45,904 nucleotides of DNA. Source: Escherichia phage vB_EcoS_PTXU06. The notes beneath the pieces were generated by a model. The model was given only the letters and a program-made list of their open reading frames with translations, did not search any database and was not told where the DNA came from. Each line of letters starts with the position of its first letter. The first letter of the stretch is position 1. The position numbers and the translations under genes were made by a program. Location: sequence record NC_073064.1. One strand, given 5' to 3'. Shown one piece after another: positions 16,845 to 45,790 of this stretch.

Positions 16845-17160
16845 TGAAGCGGGACGTCCCGCTTTGTCCCGCCCTGTAAAACCGCATATCTAATCACTTT
16901 CATTGCATAAACTCAAAGCGGGACAGGCGGGACGTCCCGTTTTGTCCCACCACGCAAATGCGCATACCTATGCAGTTTTATTGCATAAAGTAAGCGGGAC
17001 AGAAAGCGGGACAGACAAGGGGCGGGACAAAGTGGGACAGCACCCCGTCCCCGCCAGTGCTGCCGCGGTTTTCAGCCGATCGGGACAGGCGGGACAAACC
17101 CCAGTCTTTCAGACTAGACGGGGGTCAGCGGTCCCCCTCGTCTGAGACTGAATAAGGTTT
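16845..17160. repeat. iteron cluster A: about 14 GCGGGACA boxes in both orientations plus a long imperfect palindrome
   Basis: Read directly; 374-bp non-coding gap between the chaperone stop and the tape-measure start; homologous to 45606-45790. Confidence 0.8.
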
Positions 17161-29778: not shown

Positions 29779-30231
29779 TTATTTAAGTGCGCCAGTCACC
29801 AGTGTTTTTTCCATGTTGCGGAAATCTTCCGGCGTCATGAGGATTTTGGACCCATCTTCGCCGGTGAGCACGACCATAGGCCGGGCGTCTTGATCTGCGG
29901 TGGGGCAACCTTTGAGGCTTTCAAACTGTTCTGCCGTTGTATCGATCTGAATCTCGTCGTGTACGGTCATGTACGACTCGCCCAGCAAGGCCGCATACGC
30001 TACCAGGTCGACGATATTGTCTTCCTGGTGCTTACGGTGCTGGCGCACCAGCTTCAGGCAGATCAAGAAGGTCCATGCTTCTTGCTCGGTCAGGTCGCGA
30101 CCGGTAAGCGCGTTAAACACGGCAGCGATCTGCTTAGCACTTCGTTCTTCTTTCTCGCCGTCATAGCCGTTTTCTTTCCCGCGCTGTTCCATAGTGGTGG
30201 CGGCGTTTTTGCAGTATTCGTATGCTTTCAT
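29779..30231 (-). CDS. hypothetical protein
   Basis: 150-aa ORF downstream of the candidate promoter at 30278-30307. Confidence 0.5.
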   Translation of the reverse strand: MKAYEYCKNAATTMEQRGKENGYDGEKEERSAKQIAAVFNALTGRDLTEQEAWTFLICLKLVRQHRKHQEDNIVDLVAYAALLGESYMTVHDEIQIDTTAEQFESLKGCPTADQDARPMVVLTGEDGSKILMTPEDFRNMEKTLVTGALK

Positions 30232-30277: not shown

Positions 30278-30307
30278 ACTATAGTGCAACCAACCTATTG
30301 GTTGCAA
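30278..30307 (-). promoter_or_regulatory. candidate promoter (-35 TTGCAA, 18-bp spacer, -10 TATAGT) overlapping a palindromic operator-like site
   Basis: Inverted repeat TGCAACCAA-CCTA-TTGGTTGCA at 30285-30306 read directly. Confidence 0.35.
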
Positions 30308-30765
30308 GTAAATTTTGCAACATTTATTGCGTAAATTTTCGGAACCAGATCGCTGCACGCCCGACGAATTGCCGCGATGTTCTTCTCGCAATCTTCAATG
30401 ATGACCAGTTCCGACACGTCCGCATAGCAGACCATTTTGAACACGGCGCACGCCTTAAACTCAGGCGGTGGGGTGTCGTCCAGCATGTGGCGCATAAACA
30501 ACCGACCGACAGGGAAGACCTCCAGTTGCTCGGCGGTAGTCTCCCAGCATTCTCGCTGCCGGTTTGTCAGATACGCGATCTCGAAGCCTTGCTCTTTATA
30601 CATGCTCAACAGCGGCAGCATATCCATGTTAAGGTCTTCGCGTACGTGCGCTTTGTGCCACTTCGCCCAAAATGTTGATTTGGTTTTTATACCTGGAACC
30701 AGGTCGGCGCGTGCATCACTCGAACCATTAATAACGCCATCAAGATCACAAATCAGTAGTTTCAT
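30295..30765 (-). CDS. HAD-superfamily hydrolase, putative 5'(3')-deoxyribonucleotidase-like
   Basis: N-terminal LLICDLDGVI matches the HAD motif I (DxDG) as in phage and eukaryotic 5'-nucleotidases. Confidence 0.5.
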   Translation of the reverse strand: MKLLICDLDGVINGSSDARADLVPGIKTKSTFWAKWHKAHVREDLNMDMLPLLSMYKEQGFEIAYLTNRQRECWETTAEQLEVFPVGRLFMRHMLDDTPPPEFKACAVFKMVCYADVSELVIIEDCEKNIAAIRRACSDLVPKIYAINVAKFTCNQ

Positions 30766-30986
30766 TGTAAGCTCTCAATAAGGGTGTATCGGACGCTGCG
30801 CGCGGAAAACTTGTTACACACAAGATGCCAACGGGCGGTTATGACCAGCCAGCCGGTAAGATCCAGGCCCAGGATATATTCTGGACGTGACACGCGCTTC
30901 ACACGATCGCGGCGCGGGTCGATGTTATAGTCTATTTGCATTCGGACTACTACCGCAGGGTCGCGGTCAACGATTAAGATATTCAA
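30762..30986 (-). CDS. hypothetical protein
   Basis: 74-aa ORF overlapping both neighbours. Confidence 0.4.
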   Translation of the reverse strand: MNILIVDRDPAVVVRMQIDYNIDPRRDRVKRVSRPEYILGLDLTGWLVITARWHLVCNKFSARSVRYTLIESLQ

Positions 30987-31452
30987 GGAGTTCTCCTTCG
31001 CTCATTATTTCAATTTGTGCGCTGCCGATGGGTGGCGCTTCGTCAAAGATTATCAATTGCTGGCACTTGTTATTGCTCGGCCCGACTTCGCCGGTGACGG
31101 CGTGAATGAATCTAATCCGCCAGTCCAGAAGAATTATCAGGTTTGCAGTCTTCCGGGCCAGCTTCGCCCACTTCGTCGACGTGTCCTGATTCAGTAGCAT
31201 GACAGTCCGGCGTCCGTGCGCTGCGCACTCAACCCACGGCAGCGGATCGGAATACGGCGGATTGCACCACTTCCACCCTTTCAACTCTGCCCAGTCCACA
31301 TCAAGCGCGCTGTGCTCTGCCGTGAAGTAACGCGGTAGCAGATGGTTGGCGTCGCTTGCCGCCATGTCATAACGGAATCGGTACTTCCGGCGCAGCGGTT
31401 TAAATAAAGCTGGCGGCGTGCGCCAGCTATCTTTTTGCTCACTCTTCTGCAT
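30967..31452 (-). CDS. DNA N6-adenine methyltransferase (phage Dam-like)
   Basis: 161 aa; N-terminal WRTPP and catalytic NPPYS motif typical of small phage N6A methyltransferases. Confidence 0.75.
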   Translation of the reverse strand: MQKSEQKDSWRTPPALFKPLRRKYRFRYDMAASDANHLLPRYFTAEHSALDVDWAELKGWKWCNPPYSDPLPWVECAAHGRRTVMLLNQDTSTKWAKLARKTANLIILLDWRIRFIHAVTGEVGPSNNKCQQLIIFDEAPPIGSAQIEIMSEGELLEYLNR

Positions 31453-31903
31453 GGTCGGTGTCTATCGCATAAAGTGGAGTCTTACCACCTTTATTGATGA
31501 CGCGCTGCACGCGCTTTGCTTCCTCGACACTAAGCGGGCGCGCGTTCGGGTAGATGCTGCCGTTTGTAGGGTTGCGCCACGCCATGAGCACAAGGTCTTT
31601 CCGGGCGATCGAAGACTGGCGGCTCTTCGGACGCACGTACTCCTCGGCCCGTTTGCAATGCTCGCGCAGACCTTCGGCAGTGATGCGGTTTAATGCAACG
31701 CTGGTTGTGTATCCGGTGCGCTGCATAATACCCATCAACTCATACAGCAGTTCGAAGCGCTCCTCTAATTCCTTGCGCGCCTTCTTCTCGCCTACATATA
31801 GCGCATGGTTGGTGTCCGCCACCGCGTTCGCACGTTCGGCCTGATCGCGGGCTTCTAGGCATTGCGCGGCCCAGTATGCTTTTTCTTCTTGTAAAATTTT
31901 CAT
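31439..31903 (-). CDS. hypothetical protein
   Basis: Start at the internal ATG with GGAG RBS (track start 31963 lies inside a terminator hairpin); coiled-coil-like. Confidence 0.5.
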   Translation of the reverse strand: MKILQEEKAYWAAQCLEARDQAERANAVADTNHALYVGEKKARKELEERFELLYELMGIMQRTGYTTSVALNRITAEGLREHCKRAEEYVRPKSRQSSIARKDLVLMAWRNPTNGSIYPNARPLSVEEAKRVQRVINKGGKTPLYAIDTDHAEE

Positions 31904-31922
31904 CGTGTCGACTCCAGGTATT

Positions 31923-31949
31923 AAAAAAGGGCGTCCAAACCGGACACCC
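31923..31949 (-). terminator. rho-independent terminator (minus strand)
   Basis: On the minus strand GGGTGTCC-GGTTT-GGACGCCC followed by TTTTTT. Confidence 0.55.
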
Positions 31950-31951
31950 TC

Positions 31952-31980
31952 AATATAATGCAACCAATATGATTATGCAA
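31952..31980 (-). promoter_or_regulatory. candidate promoter (-35 TTGCAT, 17-bp spacer, -10 TATATT) built on two ATGCAACCAAT copies
   Basis: Motif copies at 31958-31968 and 31975-31985; hexamers read on the minus strand. Confidence 0.35.
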
Positions 31981-31985
31981 CCAAT

Positions 31986-32303
31986 TTACGCATAAAAATT
32001 CGGGTCGCGCGCGACGTCTACCAGATACAGGTTGCTGATTCGGTTGCCGTAGTGGCCTGGTGTTCGCTGGCGGCACACAACGGCGTAGCCTGGAGGAATT
32101 GTATTGCCGGTCGCGATAATCCACGCCACGCGTGCGCCCGATAGAGTTTTGCCGTTGCATTCGATGCGCGTGCCGCCATCGGCGGTATTGAGGTTGCCAA
32201 TTTTGCAGCCGGTGGACTTCAGACGAATGACGCCGGTTTTGCTGTCGTAGGAGAATAACTGGTTAGTCATTGCAACCGAAAAATCGATGGCTTCGAATGT
32301 CAT
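31986..32303 (-). CDS. HNH_3-like (homing-endonuclease-like) protein, possibly degenerate
   Basis: 105 aa; ARVAWIIATG and GNRISNLYLV resemble HNH_3 proteins but the canonical D-H is replaced (VCRQ); ATGA-coupled to the upstream methyltransferase-like gene. Confidence 0.4.
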   Translation of the reverse strand: MTFEAIDFSVAMTNQLFSYDSKTGVIRLKSTGCKIGNLNTADGGTRIECNGKTLSGARVAWIIATGNTIPPGYAVVCRQRTPGHYGNRISNLYLVDVARDPNFYA

Positions 32304-32995
32304 TTTAAATTTTCCTCGTTAACCGCTATCGCGAAGCCGCGCGGAGTGAGCGACCTGATTAATTTGGTGCGGGCAGATTTGCCTCCGAGGCGACTATACT
32401 GCTTCGAGTACCCTTTTTCAACGAATACAGGCTTTTTCTCTGGCATACGGAAGCCGTTGCCGGTCCATAAGCAGGTCAGCTTCGGATATGAATCACGGGC
32501 GTTGATGTATTCAGGGAATAGCGGGTGCACGTCATCCTCCGGCAAATAGCCGCCATACTCCCACGGGTCAAACGAGTGGTCAGGCTTACGCCATTGAGTG
32601 GAGAGCACGCTGCGCGGGTTCTCAATCAGATACGGCACTTCAAAGAAATCACCCAGGTAAGCGGCGATCTTCGCGGTGCGTACCGCCTTAAGCTGGAAGG
32701 CAGGGTCGCTGGCGCGTTTGCGCGGGAAAGCTGGCGCACCGCTAACCGCCAGATCCGTACACGGCGGGAATGCATAAATGATGTCCGGCGTGCCGAAATC
32801 ACCATTCATCGCACGGTCCACGAAGTCCAGATCGATAAACTCATTGCGATACCGGATTCCGCGACCATAAATCCGGTAGTCAAGGTAAGACCCGTGATCG
32901 GCTTCGGAGTAGTTGAAGCAATAACACTTATGCCCCATCTCGGCAGCACGCTCAATCATCAAGCCGCTGCCGTCGAACAATGACCAGATTATCAT
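32300..32995 (-). CDS. putative DNA (cytosine-5)-methyltransferase-like protein, copy 1
   Basis: 231 aa; LFDGSG (motif I-like), FPPC (motif IV-like catalytic Cys), LIENP (motif VI-like); unusually short for a C5 methyltransferase. Confidence 0.5.
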   Translation of the reverse strand: MIIWSLFDGSGLMIERAAEMGHKCYCFNYSEADHGSYLDYRIYGRGIRYRNEFIDLDFVDRAMNGDFGTPDIIYAFPPCTDLAVSGAPAFPRKRASDPAFQLKAVRTAKIAAYLGDFFEVPYLIENPRSVLSTQWRKPDHSFDPWEYGGYLPEDDVHPLFPEYINARDSYPKLTCLWTGNGFRMPEKKPVFVEKGYSKQYSRLGGKSARTKLIRSLTPRGFAIAVNEENLK

Positions 32996-33168
32996 TTGCG
33001 CGCCTTTTTAGCTTTCATGTATTCCATTAAATCATCCTGAATATCGCGCTTACTGTCGCGACGCTCGGCGACCAGTTCGTCCAGCGTCCCGCGAGCCTGG
33101 ATAATGTAGACGAATACGGGTCGAGGGTGTCCTGCTTGCATCTGGCGAACCGGCCCGATACGTTCAAC
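32992..33168 (-). pseudogene. duplicated 3' fragment of the helicase gene (last ~58 codons)
   Basis: Identical to 34056-34232; the 90-aa track ORF here is a junction chimera of the helicase C-terminus with out-of-frame sequence. Confidence 0.6.
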
Positions 33169-33367
33169 TGCCGGTCGCGATAATCCACGCCACGCGTGCG
33201 CCCGATAGAGTTTTGCCGTTGCATTCGATGCGCGTGCCGCCATCGGCGGTATTGAGGTTGCCAATTTTGCAGCCGGTGGACTTCAGACGAATGACGCCGG
33301 TTTTGCTGTCGTAGGAGAATAACTGGTTAGTCATTGCAACCGAAAAATCGATGGCTTCGAATGTCAT
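33169..33367 (-). pseudogene. truncated 5' copy of the HNH-like gene
   Basis: First ~64 codons identical to 31986-32303, then broken at the duplication junction. Confidence 0.55.
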
Positions 33368-34059
33368 TTTAAATTTTCCTCGTTAACCGCTATCGCGAAG
33401 CCGCGCGGAGTGAGCGACCTGATTAATTTGGTGCGGGCAGATTTGCCTCCGAGGCGACTATACTGCTTCGAGTACCCTTTTTCAACGAATACAGGCTTTT
33501 TCTCTGGCATACGGAAGCCGTTGCCGGTCCATAAGCAGGTCAGCTTCGGATATGAATCACGGGCGTTGATGTATTCAGGGAATAGCGGGTGCACGTCATC
33601 CTCCGGCAAATAGCCGCCATACTCCCACGGGTCAAACGAGTGGTCAGGCTTACGCCATTGAGTGGAGAGCACGCTGCGCGGGTTCTCAATCAGATACGGC
33701 ACTTCAAAGAAATCACCCAGGTAAGCGGCGATCTTCGCGGTGCGTACCGCCTTAAGCTGGAAGGCAGGGTCGCTGGCGCGTTTGCGCGGGAAAGCTGGCG
33801 CACCGCTAACCGCCAGATCCGTACACGGCGGGAATGCATAAATGATGTCCGGCGTGCCGAAATCACCATTCATCGCACGGTCCACGAAGTCCAGATCGAT
33901 AAACTCATTGCGATACCGGATTCCGCGACCATAAATCCGGTAGTCAAGGTAAGACCCGTGATCGGCTTCGGAGTAGTTGAAGCAATAACACTTATGCCCC
34001 ATCTCGGCAGCACGCTCAATCATCAAGCCGCTGCCGTCGAACAATGACCAGATTATCAT
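33364..34059 (-). CDS. putative DNA (cytosine-5)-methyltransferase-like protein, copy 2
   Basis: Translation identical to copy 1. Confidence 0.5.
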   Translation of the reverse strand: MIIWSLFDGSGLMIERAAEMGHKCYCFNYSEADHGSYLDYRIYGRGIRYRNEFIDLDFVDRAMNGDFGTPDIIYAFPPCTDLAVSGAPAFPRKRASDPAFQLKAVRTAKIAAYLGDFFEVPYLIENPRSVLSTQWRKPDHSFDPWEYGGYLPEDDVHPLFPEYINARDSYPKLTCLWTGNGFRMPEKKPVFVEKGYSKQYSRLGGKSARTKLIRSLTPRGFAIAVNEENLK

Positions 34060-35480
34060 TTGCGCGCCTTTTTAGCTTTCATGTATTCCATTAAATCATC
34101 CTGAATATCGCGCTTACTGTCGCGACGCTCGGCGACCAGTTCGTCCAGCGTCCCGCGAGCCTGGATAATGTAGACGAATACGGGTCGAGGGTGTCCTGCT
34201 TGCATCTGGCGAACCGGCCCGATACGTTCAACGATCTGCGAAAAGTGCTCAAAGTTCCAGGTATCGGAGAAGATTGCCAGGTGATGACCGCCGTCCTGCA
34301 AGTTAAGGCCGTGGCCCGCCGATGCCGGGTGTGCAAACATGATGGGGATCTCGCCTCTGTTCCACGCCTCCATATCCTTATTGCCCTGCTTACCTTTACC
34401 CAACGCAACGCCGTGCGGAAATTTCTTCTTAAGACGTGCCAGGTCATGCTTATACTGATACGCAACGAGCAACGGCGCGCCGTTCAACTCCTCCACGATA
34501 CTTTCCAGCGCGTCCAGCTTCGCGTCGTGAATCTTCACCCACTCGTCGGTCCGTTCGCCGTCTTCGTCGACTTTATACACAGCCCCCGAAGCAAGCTGAA
34601 GGCACTTAATAGTCTTCGATGCAGCGTTCGCCGCCTCCACAGTTCCGCTTTCCAGTTCCGCAAATAACTCCGCTTCGAACTGGTCATAAATCTTGCGGGC
34701 TTTCTTCGGCAGGTCCACAACAACCGGCGTATATATTGGCTTGTCGCATCCGAAGTATTCCGCCGCGTCAACGGTTAGCGACACGTCGGACAGGCGTTGT
34801 TGGATCTCTTTCTCGGAGTTCTTAAGCGGGGCGTGCTGCATAGAGAAGCTGCCAGGCTTAACAGGCTTGCTAATGAACCAGCGATCGGTAAATGCCTTAT
34901 AGCTACTGCCGAGGCGTTCGCCACCGTCGACAAACCACGTTTGCCCCCACAGATCTTTCAAGCCATTTGGCGCTGGTGTGCCGGTAAGGTTAATCCAGCG
35001 CTTGACGTGCTTATGTGCGATCGCCGCCAGTGCGCGTGCGCGCTTACTACCCTGCTTACTTCGGTAGCCTTTCAGCTTAGTGGATTCATCGGCAACAACC
35101 ACCGTAAAGGGCCACGCATCGCCGTAATAGTCGACCAGCCACTCAACCACATCGTAGTTAACACAAACCACGTTAGCGTCGCTCTCAAGCGCGGCAATAC
35201 GGTCCTTCTCCGGTCCGGTGCCGTCTACGACCAGCAGGGATGAGAACCGCCATTTCTCCTGTTCCGGGGGCCATGTACCCGACGCAACACGCAGCGGGGC
35301 CAGCACCAGTACGCGGTCCTCATGATGGGACAGGATGCCAGTCTGGAACATTTTGTTCAGCGCCCACATTGTCGCGCCGGTTTTACCCGACCCCATTGTC
35401 GCCCAGATATTGCATCGCTTATGCTTGAGGATGAACGCGGTAATCAACTTCTGATATTCGCGGCGTCGGAATCGTGCCAT
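34056..35480 (-). CDS. SNF2/DEAD-like helicase
   Basis: Walker A GSGKTG, DExx box VVADEST, C-terminal helicase motif QIVERIGPVRQ; start taken at ATG 35480 (MARFRRR); the track ORF extends to a GTG at 35570 overlapping the upstream gene. Confidence 0.8.
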   Translation of the reverse strand: MARFRRREYQKLITAFILKHKRCNIWATMGSGKTGATMWALNKMFQTGILSHHEDRVLVLAPLRVASGTWPPEQEKWRFSSLLVVDGTGPEKDRIAALESDANVVCVNYDVVEWLVDYYGDAWPFTVVVADESTKLKGYRSKQGSKRARALAAIAHKHVKRWINLTGTPAPNGLKDLWGQTWFVDGGERLGSSYKAFTDRWFISKPVKPGSFSMQHAPLKNSEKEIQQRLSDVSLTVDAAEYFGCDKPIYTPVVVDLPKKARKIYDQFEAELFAELESGTVEAANAASKTIKCLQLASGAVYKVDEDGERTDEWVKIHDAKLDALESIVEELNGAPLLVAYQYKHDLARLKKKFPHGVALGKGKQGNKDMEAWNRGEIPIMFAHPASAGHGLNLQDGGHHLAIFSDTWNFEHFSQIVERIGPVRQMQAGHPRPVFVYIIQARGTLDELVAERRDSKRDIQDDLMEYMKAKKARK

Positions 35481-35484
35481 GTCT

Positions 35485-35703
35485 TTATTCCGCCTTTTTC
35501 CAGACTTCGGTTTCACTGTTCCAGTTCCTTTTTGTGGCGTCGTAGTTGGTGGCGTGTCCGATGTGGACACCGGTAGCCCGGAAGCTCTTAAATTTTTGCC
35601 AGCACACCGTCAACGGCAGCGGATCATTCATGCCCGCGATAAACCATACGCGATCGCCCGGTTTACATTCGCCCAGCTTGGTGAGTCGGTAATGTTCTTT
35701 CAT
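35485..35703 (-). CDS. hypothetical protein
   Basis: 72 aa from the ATG with GGGAGA RBS at 7-nt spacing; preceded by a terminator. Confidence 0.4.
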   Translation of the reverse strand: MKEHYRLTKLGECKPGDRVWFIAGMNDPLPLTVCWQKFKSFRATGVHIGHATNYDATKRNWNSETEVWKKAE

Positions 35704-45605: not shown

Positions 45606-45790
45606 TTATGCAGTTTTATTGCATAAACTAAGCGGGACAAAAAGCGGGACAGCCAAGGGGCGGGACAAAGCGGGACAGCACCCCCGTCCCGCCCCGGATG
45701 GCGCGGCCTAGAGAGGAGCGGGACAGCGGGACAGCACCCCAGTCTTTCAGACTAGACGGGGGTCAACGGCCCCCCTCGTCTGAGACTGCA
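45606..45790. repeat. iteron cluster B: about 8 GCGGGACA boxes plus a long imperfect palindrome
   Basis: Roughly 85% identical by eye to 16967-17150, with small indels. Confidence 0.8.

Follow-up and report, generated by a model that had tools for sequence, protein, structure and literature searches.

We examined the genes at positions 30900-35600 of Escherichia phage vB_EcoS_PTXU06 (NC_073064.1), a 45,904-nt stretch of DNA that is called the window here. An earlier note, written from the letters of the DNA alone, had drawn attention to a short gene with a C5-methyltransferase fold in this interval, coupled to a degenerate HNH-like open reading frame (ORF) and lying beside a Dam-like methyltransferase gene. 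These ordinary DNA-methylation and replication genes form the distal end of the early/replication block in a coliphage of the genus Dhillonvirus (HK578-like). In the account that we favour, with a probability of roughly 0.75, the short gene encodes a Dcm-like methyltransferase of a known type, its HNH-like neighbour encodes a non-catalytic protein, a Dam gene belongs to the same block, and a 1,064-bp tandem duplication within the block is an artefact. The SNF2 helicase gene, the short orphan methyltransferase gene and the small HNH_3-derived gene are coupled in translation through ATGA overlaps, and a terminator ends the chain; a conserved gene for a protein of 154 amino acids (aa) and the Dam gene come next. 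A megablast search with positions 30900-35600 returned 159 phage records, nearly all of them Escherichia or Shigella Dhillonviruses (HK578-like siphophages) at 80-95% identity.

A short Dcm-like cytosine methyltransferase

The 231-aa protein encoded by the short gene is a full-length relative of an experimentally supported family of phage Dcm-like enzymes, and as such it is already known rather than new. The relevant comparison is with phage K42, a Drexlerviridae phage similar to KarlJaspers/Bas06. In a study of retron Ec86, all K42 escape mutants fell in a 711-bp 'dcm' gene, and this gene expressed alone triggered the retron (10.1101/2023.08.16.553469; published as Wang et al., Cell Rep 2024 43:114857). 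Liquid chromatography-mass spectrometry detected high levels of 5-methylcytosine (5mC) in multicopy single-stranded DNA (msDNA) with wild-type K42 dcm, but not with a C82A/E128A/K175A/K176A mutant, and the authors superposed an AlphaFold model of K42 Dcm on DNMT3A and assigned K175 and K176 to substrate binding (10.1101/2023.08.16.553469). The KarlJaspers counterpart, bas06_0055, is likewise a 711-bp gene, annotated as 'Dcm-like C5 cytosine methyltransferase'. Its product is 53% identical to the window protein from end to end (E 6e-86; 231 versus 236 aa), and C79, E125 and K172 of the window protein align with C82, E128 and K175 of K42 Dcm. The position of K176, in contrast, is Leu173 in the window protein and varies across the family. 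The two phages also differ in family and in gene neighbourhood, KarlJaspers having no HNH-like partner.

The sequence motifs agree with this assignment. FDGSG, PPC and ENP, which the earlier note had picked out, were found at residues 7-11, 77-79 and 125-127, and all three are invariant in 49 family members: motif I (F-x-G-x-G, the S-adenosylmethionine loop) as F7-D-G9-S10-G11, motif IV as P77-P78-C79-T80, whose cysteine is the residue aligned with C82 of K42 Dcm, and motif VI as E125-N126-P127, with proline replacing valine. At the strand that would correspond to motif VIII the family shows no Q-x-R-x-R but carries an invariant K172-x-T174. PHROG 757 matches residues 1-229 of the protein (E 1.9e-81). 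The protein itself has no PF00145 match, and 30 of 49 relatives give weak PF00145 matches (best E 1.3e-6); alignment of the family profile by hhalign with a classical 330-aa C5 methyltransferase, that of Edwardsiella phage eiAU-183, was uninformative (E 0.065 over 30 columns).

Structure prediction, proposed earlier as a check, supports the fold. The AlphaFold2 model of the 231-aa protein has a C5-methyltransferase catalytic-domain fold, with its best superposition on DNMT3A, its best structural matches in DNMT3A and DNMT3B, and 225-aa phage DNA-cytosine methylases as its viral structural neighbours. Sequence identity to the DNMT3A and DNMT3B catalytic domains (PDB 6u8p, 6f57) is only 13-17%, the phage family has no evident R-x-R at motif VIII, and DNMT3A and DNMT3B have regulatory domains and a DNMT3L partner, unlike the phage enzymes. 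It had been remarked that the protein is too short to hold a normal target-recognition domain. This is true of the whole family, which is 225-250 aa long throughout and of which the window protein is a full-length member, but it is no bar to activity on DNA.

The family is widespread: about 1,510 records of phages belonging to many groups contain it, and most of them lack an HNH-like neighbour. The exact 231-aa protein was not found in public gene calls. Orthologues in Dhillonviruses (PaulFeyerabend MZ501097, jat, SECphi18, JL1 and SSL-2009a) are 97-99% identical to it at the protein level and occupy the same slot between the SNF2 helicase gene and the HNH-like gene, with the same 4-nt overlaps. 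Dozens of records annotate the orthologue as a C-5 cytosine methylase, and the BASEL name for the PaulFeyerabend protein (98.7% identical) is Dcm-like C5 cytosine methyltransferase. As a discovery the finding carries little weight: hundreds of phage genomes already have the family annotated, and for a close homologue both the biochemistry and the triggering of a retron have been described.

The 231-aa enzyme would be a C5 DNA methyltransferase reduced to a minimum, in which a catalytic domain like that of DNMT3 is joined to a target-recognition region of very small size. Cys79 (of PPC) and Glu125 (of ENP) would act with S-adenosylmethionine to place 5mC on double-stranded DNA, probably at CCWGG-type sites. 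Alternatively, as the small size of the protein and its lack of motif VIII might suggest, the fold could serve another chemistry or substrate, such as RNA, a free nucleotide or a non-methyl transfer like carboxymethylation. We consider this very improbable: the full-length homologue at 53% identity shares the catalytic residues and forms 5mC in DNA, the closest structures belong to DNA methyltransferases whose recognition domains are minimal, and the viral neighbours are phage DNA-cytosine methylases. The earlier suggestion of a non-DNA substrate is thus disfavoured by both the K42 homologue and the fold matches to DNA C5 methyltransferases.

The Dam-like gene, placed by the earlier note 0.5 kb downstream, is a 161-aa PF05869 ORF that lies 534 nt past the stop of the HNH-like ORF. 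It scores 122.4 bits against PF05869 (cut-off 28.1; E 2e-35), matches PHROG 111 (E 7e-55) and carries NPPY in its translation; its score against the TIGR01712 equivalog, 85 bits, lies under the 97-bit cut-off. The product clearly belongs to the phage Dam family (PF05869/TIGR01712), with putative GATC specificity. From these two genes we infer an anti-restriction role: the Dcm-like enzyme and Dam would pre-methylate phage DNA against methylation-sensitive restriction, and such Dcm-like enzymes can in turn be sensed by retron Ec86. Among the three options put forward earlier (anti-restriction module, remnant of a mobile or restriction-modification cassette, non-DNA substrate), an anti-restriction methylation module appears to fit best, given a full-length relative of a 5mC-forming phage Dcm beside a Dam-family methylase. 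Neither putative target site is avoided in the window, where CCWGG occurs 148 times against 70 +/- 9 in shuffled sequences, twice the expectation, and GATC 164 times against 174 +/- 12 expected. These counts are compatible with self-methylation and do not prove it.

The HNH-like gene and its helicase partner

The stop codon of the methyltransferase gene overlaps the start of the 105-aa HNH-like ORF within AAAATGACATTC, the ATGA coupling that had been read from the sequence. Against this ORF, Pfam HNH_3 (PF13392) gives 13.3 bits (cut-off 24.8; E 0.066) in an alignment that ends at residue 75, just before the catalytic position, and such sub-threshold matches occur in 3 of 10 family members; a PDB profile search with the family found no match. 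PHROG 99, 'HNH endonuclease', matches residues 7-97 (E 2.5e-16). Only a dozen clusters of related proteins were found among 5.8 billion proteins, all from Dhillon-like phages except gp31 of the Edwardsiella phages eiAU/eiDWF.

For comparison with canonical enzymes we used HK629 gp62, Dru_SM1, KP34 gp19 and PPpW-3 gp52, weak hits of a permissive tblastn search against phage records, all of which are HNH_3 + AP2 proteins (PF13392 + PF00847; PF13392 E 1e-13 to 5e-21). The N-terminal beta-rich segment, 'aRvAW..G..P.G' and N-R-I-x-N-L align with these enzymes. The core, however, is degenerate, as the earlier note had proposed: I-D-H-I-N of the four bona fide enzymes falls on V-C-R-Q-R (V76-C77-R78-Q79), so that the catalytic Asp-His pair is replaced by C77-R78, or by Leu-Arg in the many members where Cys77 is a leucine. 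The C-terminal T-x-x-E-N metal-ligand segment falls in a seven-residue gap, for which a possible substitute, N102, is not invariant, and there is no AP2 domain. A two-residue insertion in the family carries an invariant G83-H84-Y85, and the central Asn block, N87-R88-I-S-N91-L92, is kept; R88, N91, L92 and D96 are also invariant. Having lost the Asp-His pair, the metal-binding segment and AP2, the protein would be neither a homing nuclease nor a restriction partner of the methyltransferase.

The distribution of the gene differs from that of I-HmuI-type homing endonucleases, from which the ORF also departs in lacking Asp-His, T-x-x-E-N and AP2. By tblastn ~156 of ~156 Dhillonvirus records have it, at one and the same locus and with no identity below 81%, and relative to the record of Escherichia phage vB_EcoS_Zar3M it shows 29 synonymous and 5 non-synonymous codon differences. 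It is thus a core gene, fixed and subject to purifying selection, and neither a pseudogene nor a sporadic homing element.

Whether the methyltransferase and HNH-like genes form a working pair can be judged from their relatives. One could envision a phage-borne mini restriction-modification or host-takeover system in which the methyltransferase marks phage DNA, while the HNH-like protein cuts or nicks unmarked DNA through a non-canonical active site around the invariant His84. The gene order helicase, methyltransferase, HNH-like and the 4-nt overlaps at both junctions are indeed kept in jat, SECphi18 and a divergent metagenomic lineage (contigs L009 and L010; methyltransferase 71% and HNH-like protein 54% identical to the window). 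In eiAU-183, the sole distant homologue, the HNH-like gene likewise adjoins a C5 methyltransferase, lying between the helicase gene and the different, classical 330-aa PF00145 enzyme, with Dam after it; and G83, H84, Y85, R88, N91, L92 and D96 are invariant. Several results nevertheless make this reading improbable. The D-H pair and the C-terminal metal-ligand segment are missing. A self/non-self distinction based on CCWGG would fail in K-12 hosts, which are themselves Dcm-methylated. The ~1,510 records with the methyltransferase family are mostly partnerless, and the K42 enzyme works alone from a plasmid (10.1101/2023.08.16.553469).

In a 25.3-kb metagenomic contig of a Dhillon-like phage (Logan SRR33991138, 2018-3824; L012), the helicase gene is followed by a 55-nt spacer and then by the HNH-like gene (54-56% identical), and no homologue of the short methyltransferase was found in the 6.3-kb locus around the HNH-like gene. 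The helicase and HNH-like genes occur there without the methyltransferase; the methyltransferase gene is a dispensable insert between them and the SNF2 helicase the constant partner of the HNH-like gene, which argues against a mini restriction-modification cassette. The mutual dependence and co-inheritance expected of a type II restriction-modification pair are not seen in either direction, the HNH-like gene standing alone in L012 and the methyltransferase gene standing alone in KarlJaspers and many others. The earlier idea of a mobile homing or mini restriction-modification remnant is not supported by these comparisons: the HNH-like gene is fixed, constrained and kept with the helicase in L012, and the methyltransferase family occurs without it in other phage groups.

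We infer that the HNH-like protein most likely lacks catalytic activity, or at least the canonical kind, and accompanies the helicase as a core protein. The widely used label 'HNH (homing) endonuclease' on the Dhillonvirus gene is probably wrong as to function, because the protein has lost its catalytic pair and its gene is fixed, with the helicase rather than the methyltransferase as partner.

The tandem duplication and the Zar3M record

Positions 32105-33168 are repeated exactly, head to tail, at 33169-34232 (1,064 nt, 0 mismatches). The earlier note, which had described the interval to 32995, was right about the genes it described but overlooked this repeat (32105-34232) and the 154/174-aa ORF. 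The repeat unit runs from the final 173 nt of the helicase gene across the complete methyltransferase gene to nucleotide 199 of the HNH-like gene; the window therefore has the methyltransferase gene twice, along with an HNH-like ORF cut down to 67 aa and a second copy of the 173 nt at the 3' end of the helicase gene. The junction at 33168/33169, ACGTTCAAC|TGCCGGTCG, has no microhomology. Elsewhere the unit is single: it was found in 158 places in 156 Dhillonvirus records, the surplus coming from two accessions of Zar3M, so that the other Dhillonvirus orthologues of the methyltransferase gene, unlike those of the window and Zar3M, are single-copy. Metagenomic relatives are single-copy for the unit as well. 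The junction sequence was not found in IMG/VR, nor the exact 67-aa junction ORF in public gene calls.

The Zar3M record (OM262541.1 = NC_073065.1; 45,901 bp; Kazakhstan) is the only one that megablast matched to the window in one piece at equal coordinates, and its annotated coding-sequence boundaries coincide with the ORFs of the window. Over 45,901 aligned bases there are 0 gaps and 2,903 mismatches, 577 of which are N in the record, and the window has 3 more bases at its 3' end. The two are almost identical at 25.5-30 kb, and elsewhere diverge by up to 11%. Around the genes considered here, most of the differences are third-position changes that leave the amino acid as it is (in the helicase gene, 69 synonymous codons versus 4 non-synonymous), and both alleles are present in other Dhillonviruses. 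These sequences are evidently two base-call versions of one scaffold, for example a reference-guided consensus or a re-issue, because independent assemblies ~6% apart would never lack insertions or deletions across all intergenic regions. The Zar3M record also resembles a low-quality or mixed consensus.

Zar3M carries the same duplication, and its two copies are identical to each other, yet its unit differs from that of the window at 91 of 1,064 positions. Since this 'concerted' pattern is that of multi-mapping reads on a shared scaffold, the window and Zar3M are not independent witnesses of the duplication. We considered and rejected their agreement as support for a real duplication, given that the gapless 45.9-kb alignment points to one scaffold. 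The duplication is most likely an assembly artefact: the genome is circularly permuted, its contig would have had overlapping ends, and these would have gone untrimmed during rotation or reference-based ordering of the sequence. The first base of the window is the first base of several other re-oriented Dhillonvirus records, and it is in such records that contig-end overlaps become internal repeats.

The duplication could instead be real and recent, with illegitimate recombination during replication having doubled the Dcm-like gene within its operon and raised the methyltransferase dose, as a 'gene accordion' under restriction pressure or in laboratory passage, and left a truncated HNH-like peptide. 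The perfect identity of the copies would fit a very recent event, all three genes keep intact copies, both methyltransferase copies keep their upstream coupling context, and a genome of 45.9 kb is only slightly above the 43-46 kb usual for the genus. We regard this as rather unlikely, since the duplication is unique among ~156 related records, it is shared only with another version of this scaffold, which contains 577 Ns and differs by substitutions without any gap, the junction and its ORF are absent from the collections searched, and the window starts where re-oriented records start, a situation that yields false internal repeats. A broader alternative joins two claims, namely a genuine recent amplification that doubles the methyltransferase dose and yields a 66-residue N-terminal HNH-like fragment and, separately, an HNH-like protein that is a dead, domesticated relic of a homing endonuclease serving the SNF2 helicase module; we consider it unlikely.

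The practical value of the analysis is twofold: the RefSeq exemplar genome, Zar3M, very probably contains a 1-kb assembly duplication, along with scattered Ns and uninformative 'hypothetical protein' labels on these genes, and the endonuclease label of the HNH-like gene is probably misleading. Residual interest is modest and concerns this probable RefSeq assembly error and an HNH_3 derivative, linked to the helicase and probably inactivated, to which the name of homing endonuclease has been wrongly given.

Several points weigh against the account given here. Phages with room for additional DNA do acquire tandem duplications. For the HNH-like protein, the invariant His84 (in G-H-Y) and the N-R-x-x-N-L block leave room for residual or non-canonical nuclease activity, and its AlphaFold2 model, built from five close sequences, has a predicted local distance difference test score of 45.7, too poor for a test of the fold. 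As for the methyltransferase, the canonical motif VIII (Q-x-R-x-R) is not recognisable in the family, and the window protein has no Pfam (E up to 0.1), NCBIfam or PDB sequence match. Searches with the family profile likewise gave no significant match. Because these direct searches were empty, the link of the protein to C5 methyltransferases rests on PHROGs, weak family-wide Pfam matches and structure comparison. The profile search suggested in the earlier note was borne out for PF05869, but remained sub-threshold for HNH_3 and gave no PF00145 match for the 231-aa protein. Formation of 5mC has been measured for the 53%-identical K42 homologue and is predicted for the Dhillonvirus copies. CCWGG specificity in K42 was assumed from E. 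coli Dcm and supported by mutation of the CCTGG site in msDNA, not mapped (10.1101/2023.08.16.553469). Finally, in BASEL phenotyping the resistance of phages to restriction was not linked in any simple way to the methyltransferase genes they carry, and Dhillonviruses are comparatively restriction-sensitive.

Gene order and neighbouring features

On the minus strand the order is helicase, methyltransferase copy 2, truncated HNH-like ORF, helicase-tail fragment, methyltransferase copy 1, full HNH-like ORF and terminator (Table 1). The helicase gene heads the ATGA-coupled chain, its stop overlapping the start of methyltransferase copy 2. A 90-aa junction ORF is a by-product of the duplication and probably no gene.

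Table 1. Features of the methylation and replication block, in window coordinates
Feature	Position	Strand	Remarks
SNF2-family helicase gene, 504-aa ORF	34056..35570	-	PF00176 SNF2-rel_dom, E 1.7e-10; start annotated at 35480 in Zar3M
Tandem repeat unit, copy 2 (upstream in transcription direction)	33169..34232	.	identical over 1,064 nt to 32105-33168
Dcm-like short C5 cytosine methyltransferase gene, copy 2, 231 aa	33364..34059	-	coupled to the intact helicase gene; translation equals that of copy 1
Truncated HNH-like ORF, 67 aa (first 66 residues, then Ser-stop)	33164..33367	-	created by the duplication junction
Junction ORF, 90 aa, TTG start	32992..33264	-	last 57 residues are the copied C-terminus of the 504-aa helicase ORF
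Tandem repeat unit, copy 1	32105..33168	.	junction at 33168/33169
Dcm-like short C5 cytosine methyltransferase gene, copy 1, 231 aa (ORF of the original finding)	32300..32995	-	
Full-length HNH_3-like ORF, 105 aa, degenerate catalytic core, no AP2	31986..32303	-	ATGA-coupled to the methyltransferase gene
Strong intrinsic terminator, 11-bp stem and T run	31927..31951	-	closes the helicase-methyltransferase-HNH-like transcription unit
Conserved ORF, 154 aa (174 aa from an upstream TTG, to 31963)	31439..31903	-	PHROG 10530 match; no Pfam match
Phage Dam-family N6-adenine methyltransferase gene, 161 aa, NPPY	30967..31452	-	PF05869, E 2e-35

PHROG 10530, which matches the 154-aa protein, is labelled 'DNA ligase', and the SECphi18 protein is annotated so. 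This label is probably wrong, because 154 aa is far too short for a ligase and the protein has no Pfam match. Relative to Zar3M, the 154-aa ORF has more non-synonymous (34) than synonymous (19) codon differences. Two further minus-strand genes, at 29779-30231 and 30295-30765, match PHROG 9871/474 (DUF6378-like, 'nucleotide modification associated') and PHROG 415 (polynucleotide kinase/acid-phosphatase-like), and by these matches more nucleic-acid-processing genes lie beside both methyltransferases.

Among the records matched, PQ843332.1 (Escherichia phage P-GXEC-L2P5) is Dhillonvirus-like, has a length of 88,607 bp, about twice that of a normal genome, and aligns with the query in numerous separate segments; concatenation or mis-assembly may have affected this record too.

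Two other repeats were seen in the window. The 9-mer ATTGGTTGC (usually ATTGGTTGCA) occurs 15 times, against ~0.35 expected by chance, at 40, 605, 11242/11256, 27287, 30285/30297, 31960/31977, 42667, 45483/45537/45572 and 45854. The copies are mostly intergenic and often in tandem or inverted pairs, two of them lying between the stop of the HNH-like ORF and its terminator, and the 9-mer probably serves the phage as a regulator or promoter element. A dispersed direct repeat of ~175 nt (~85% identity) is located at 16982-17155, upstream of the tape-measure gene, and at 45607-45788, near the right end of the genome.

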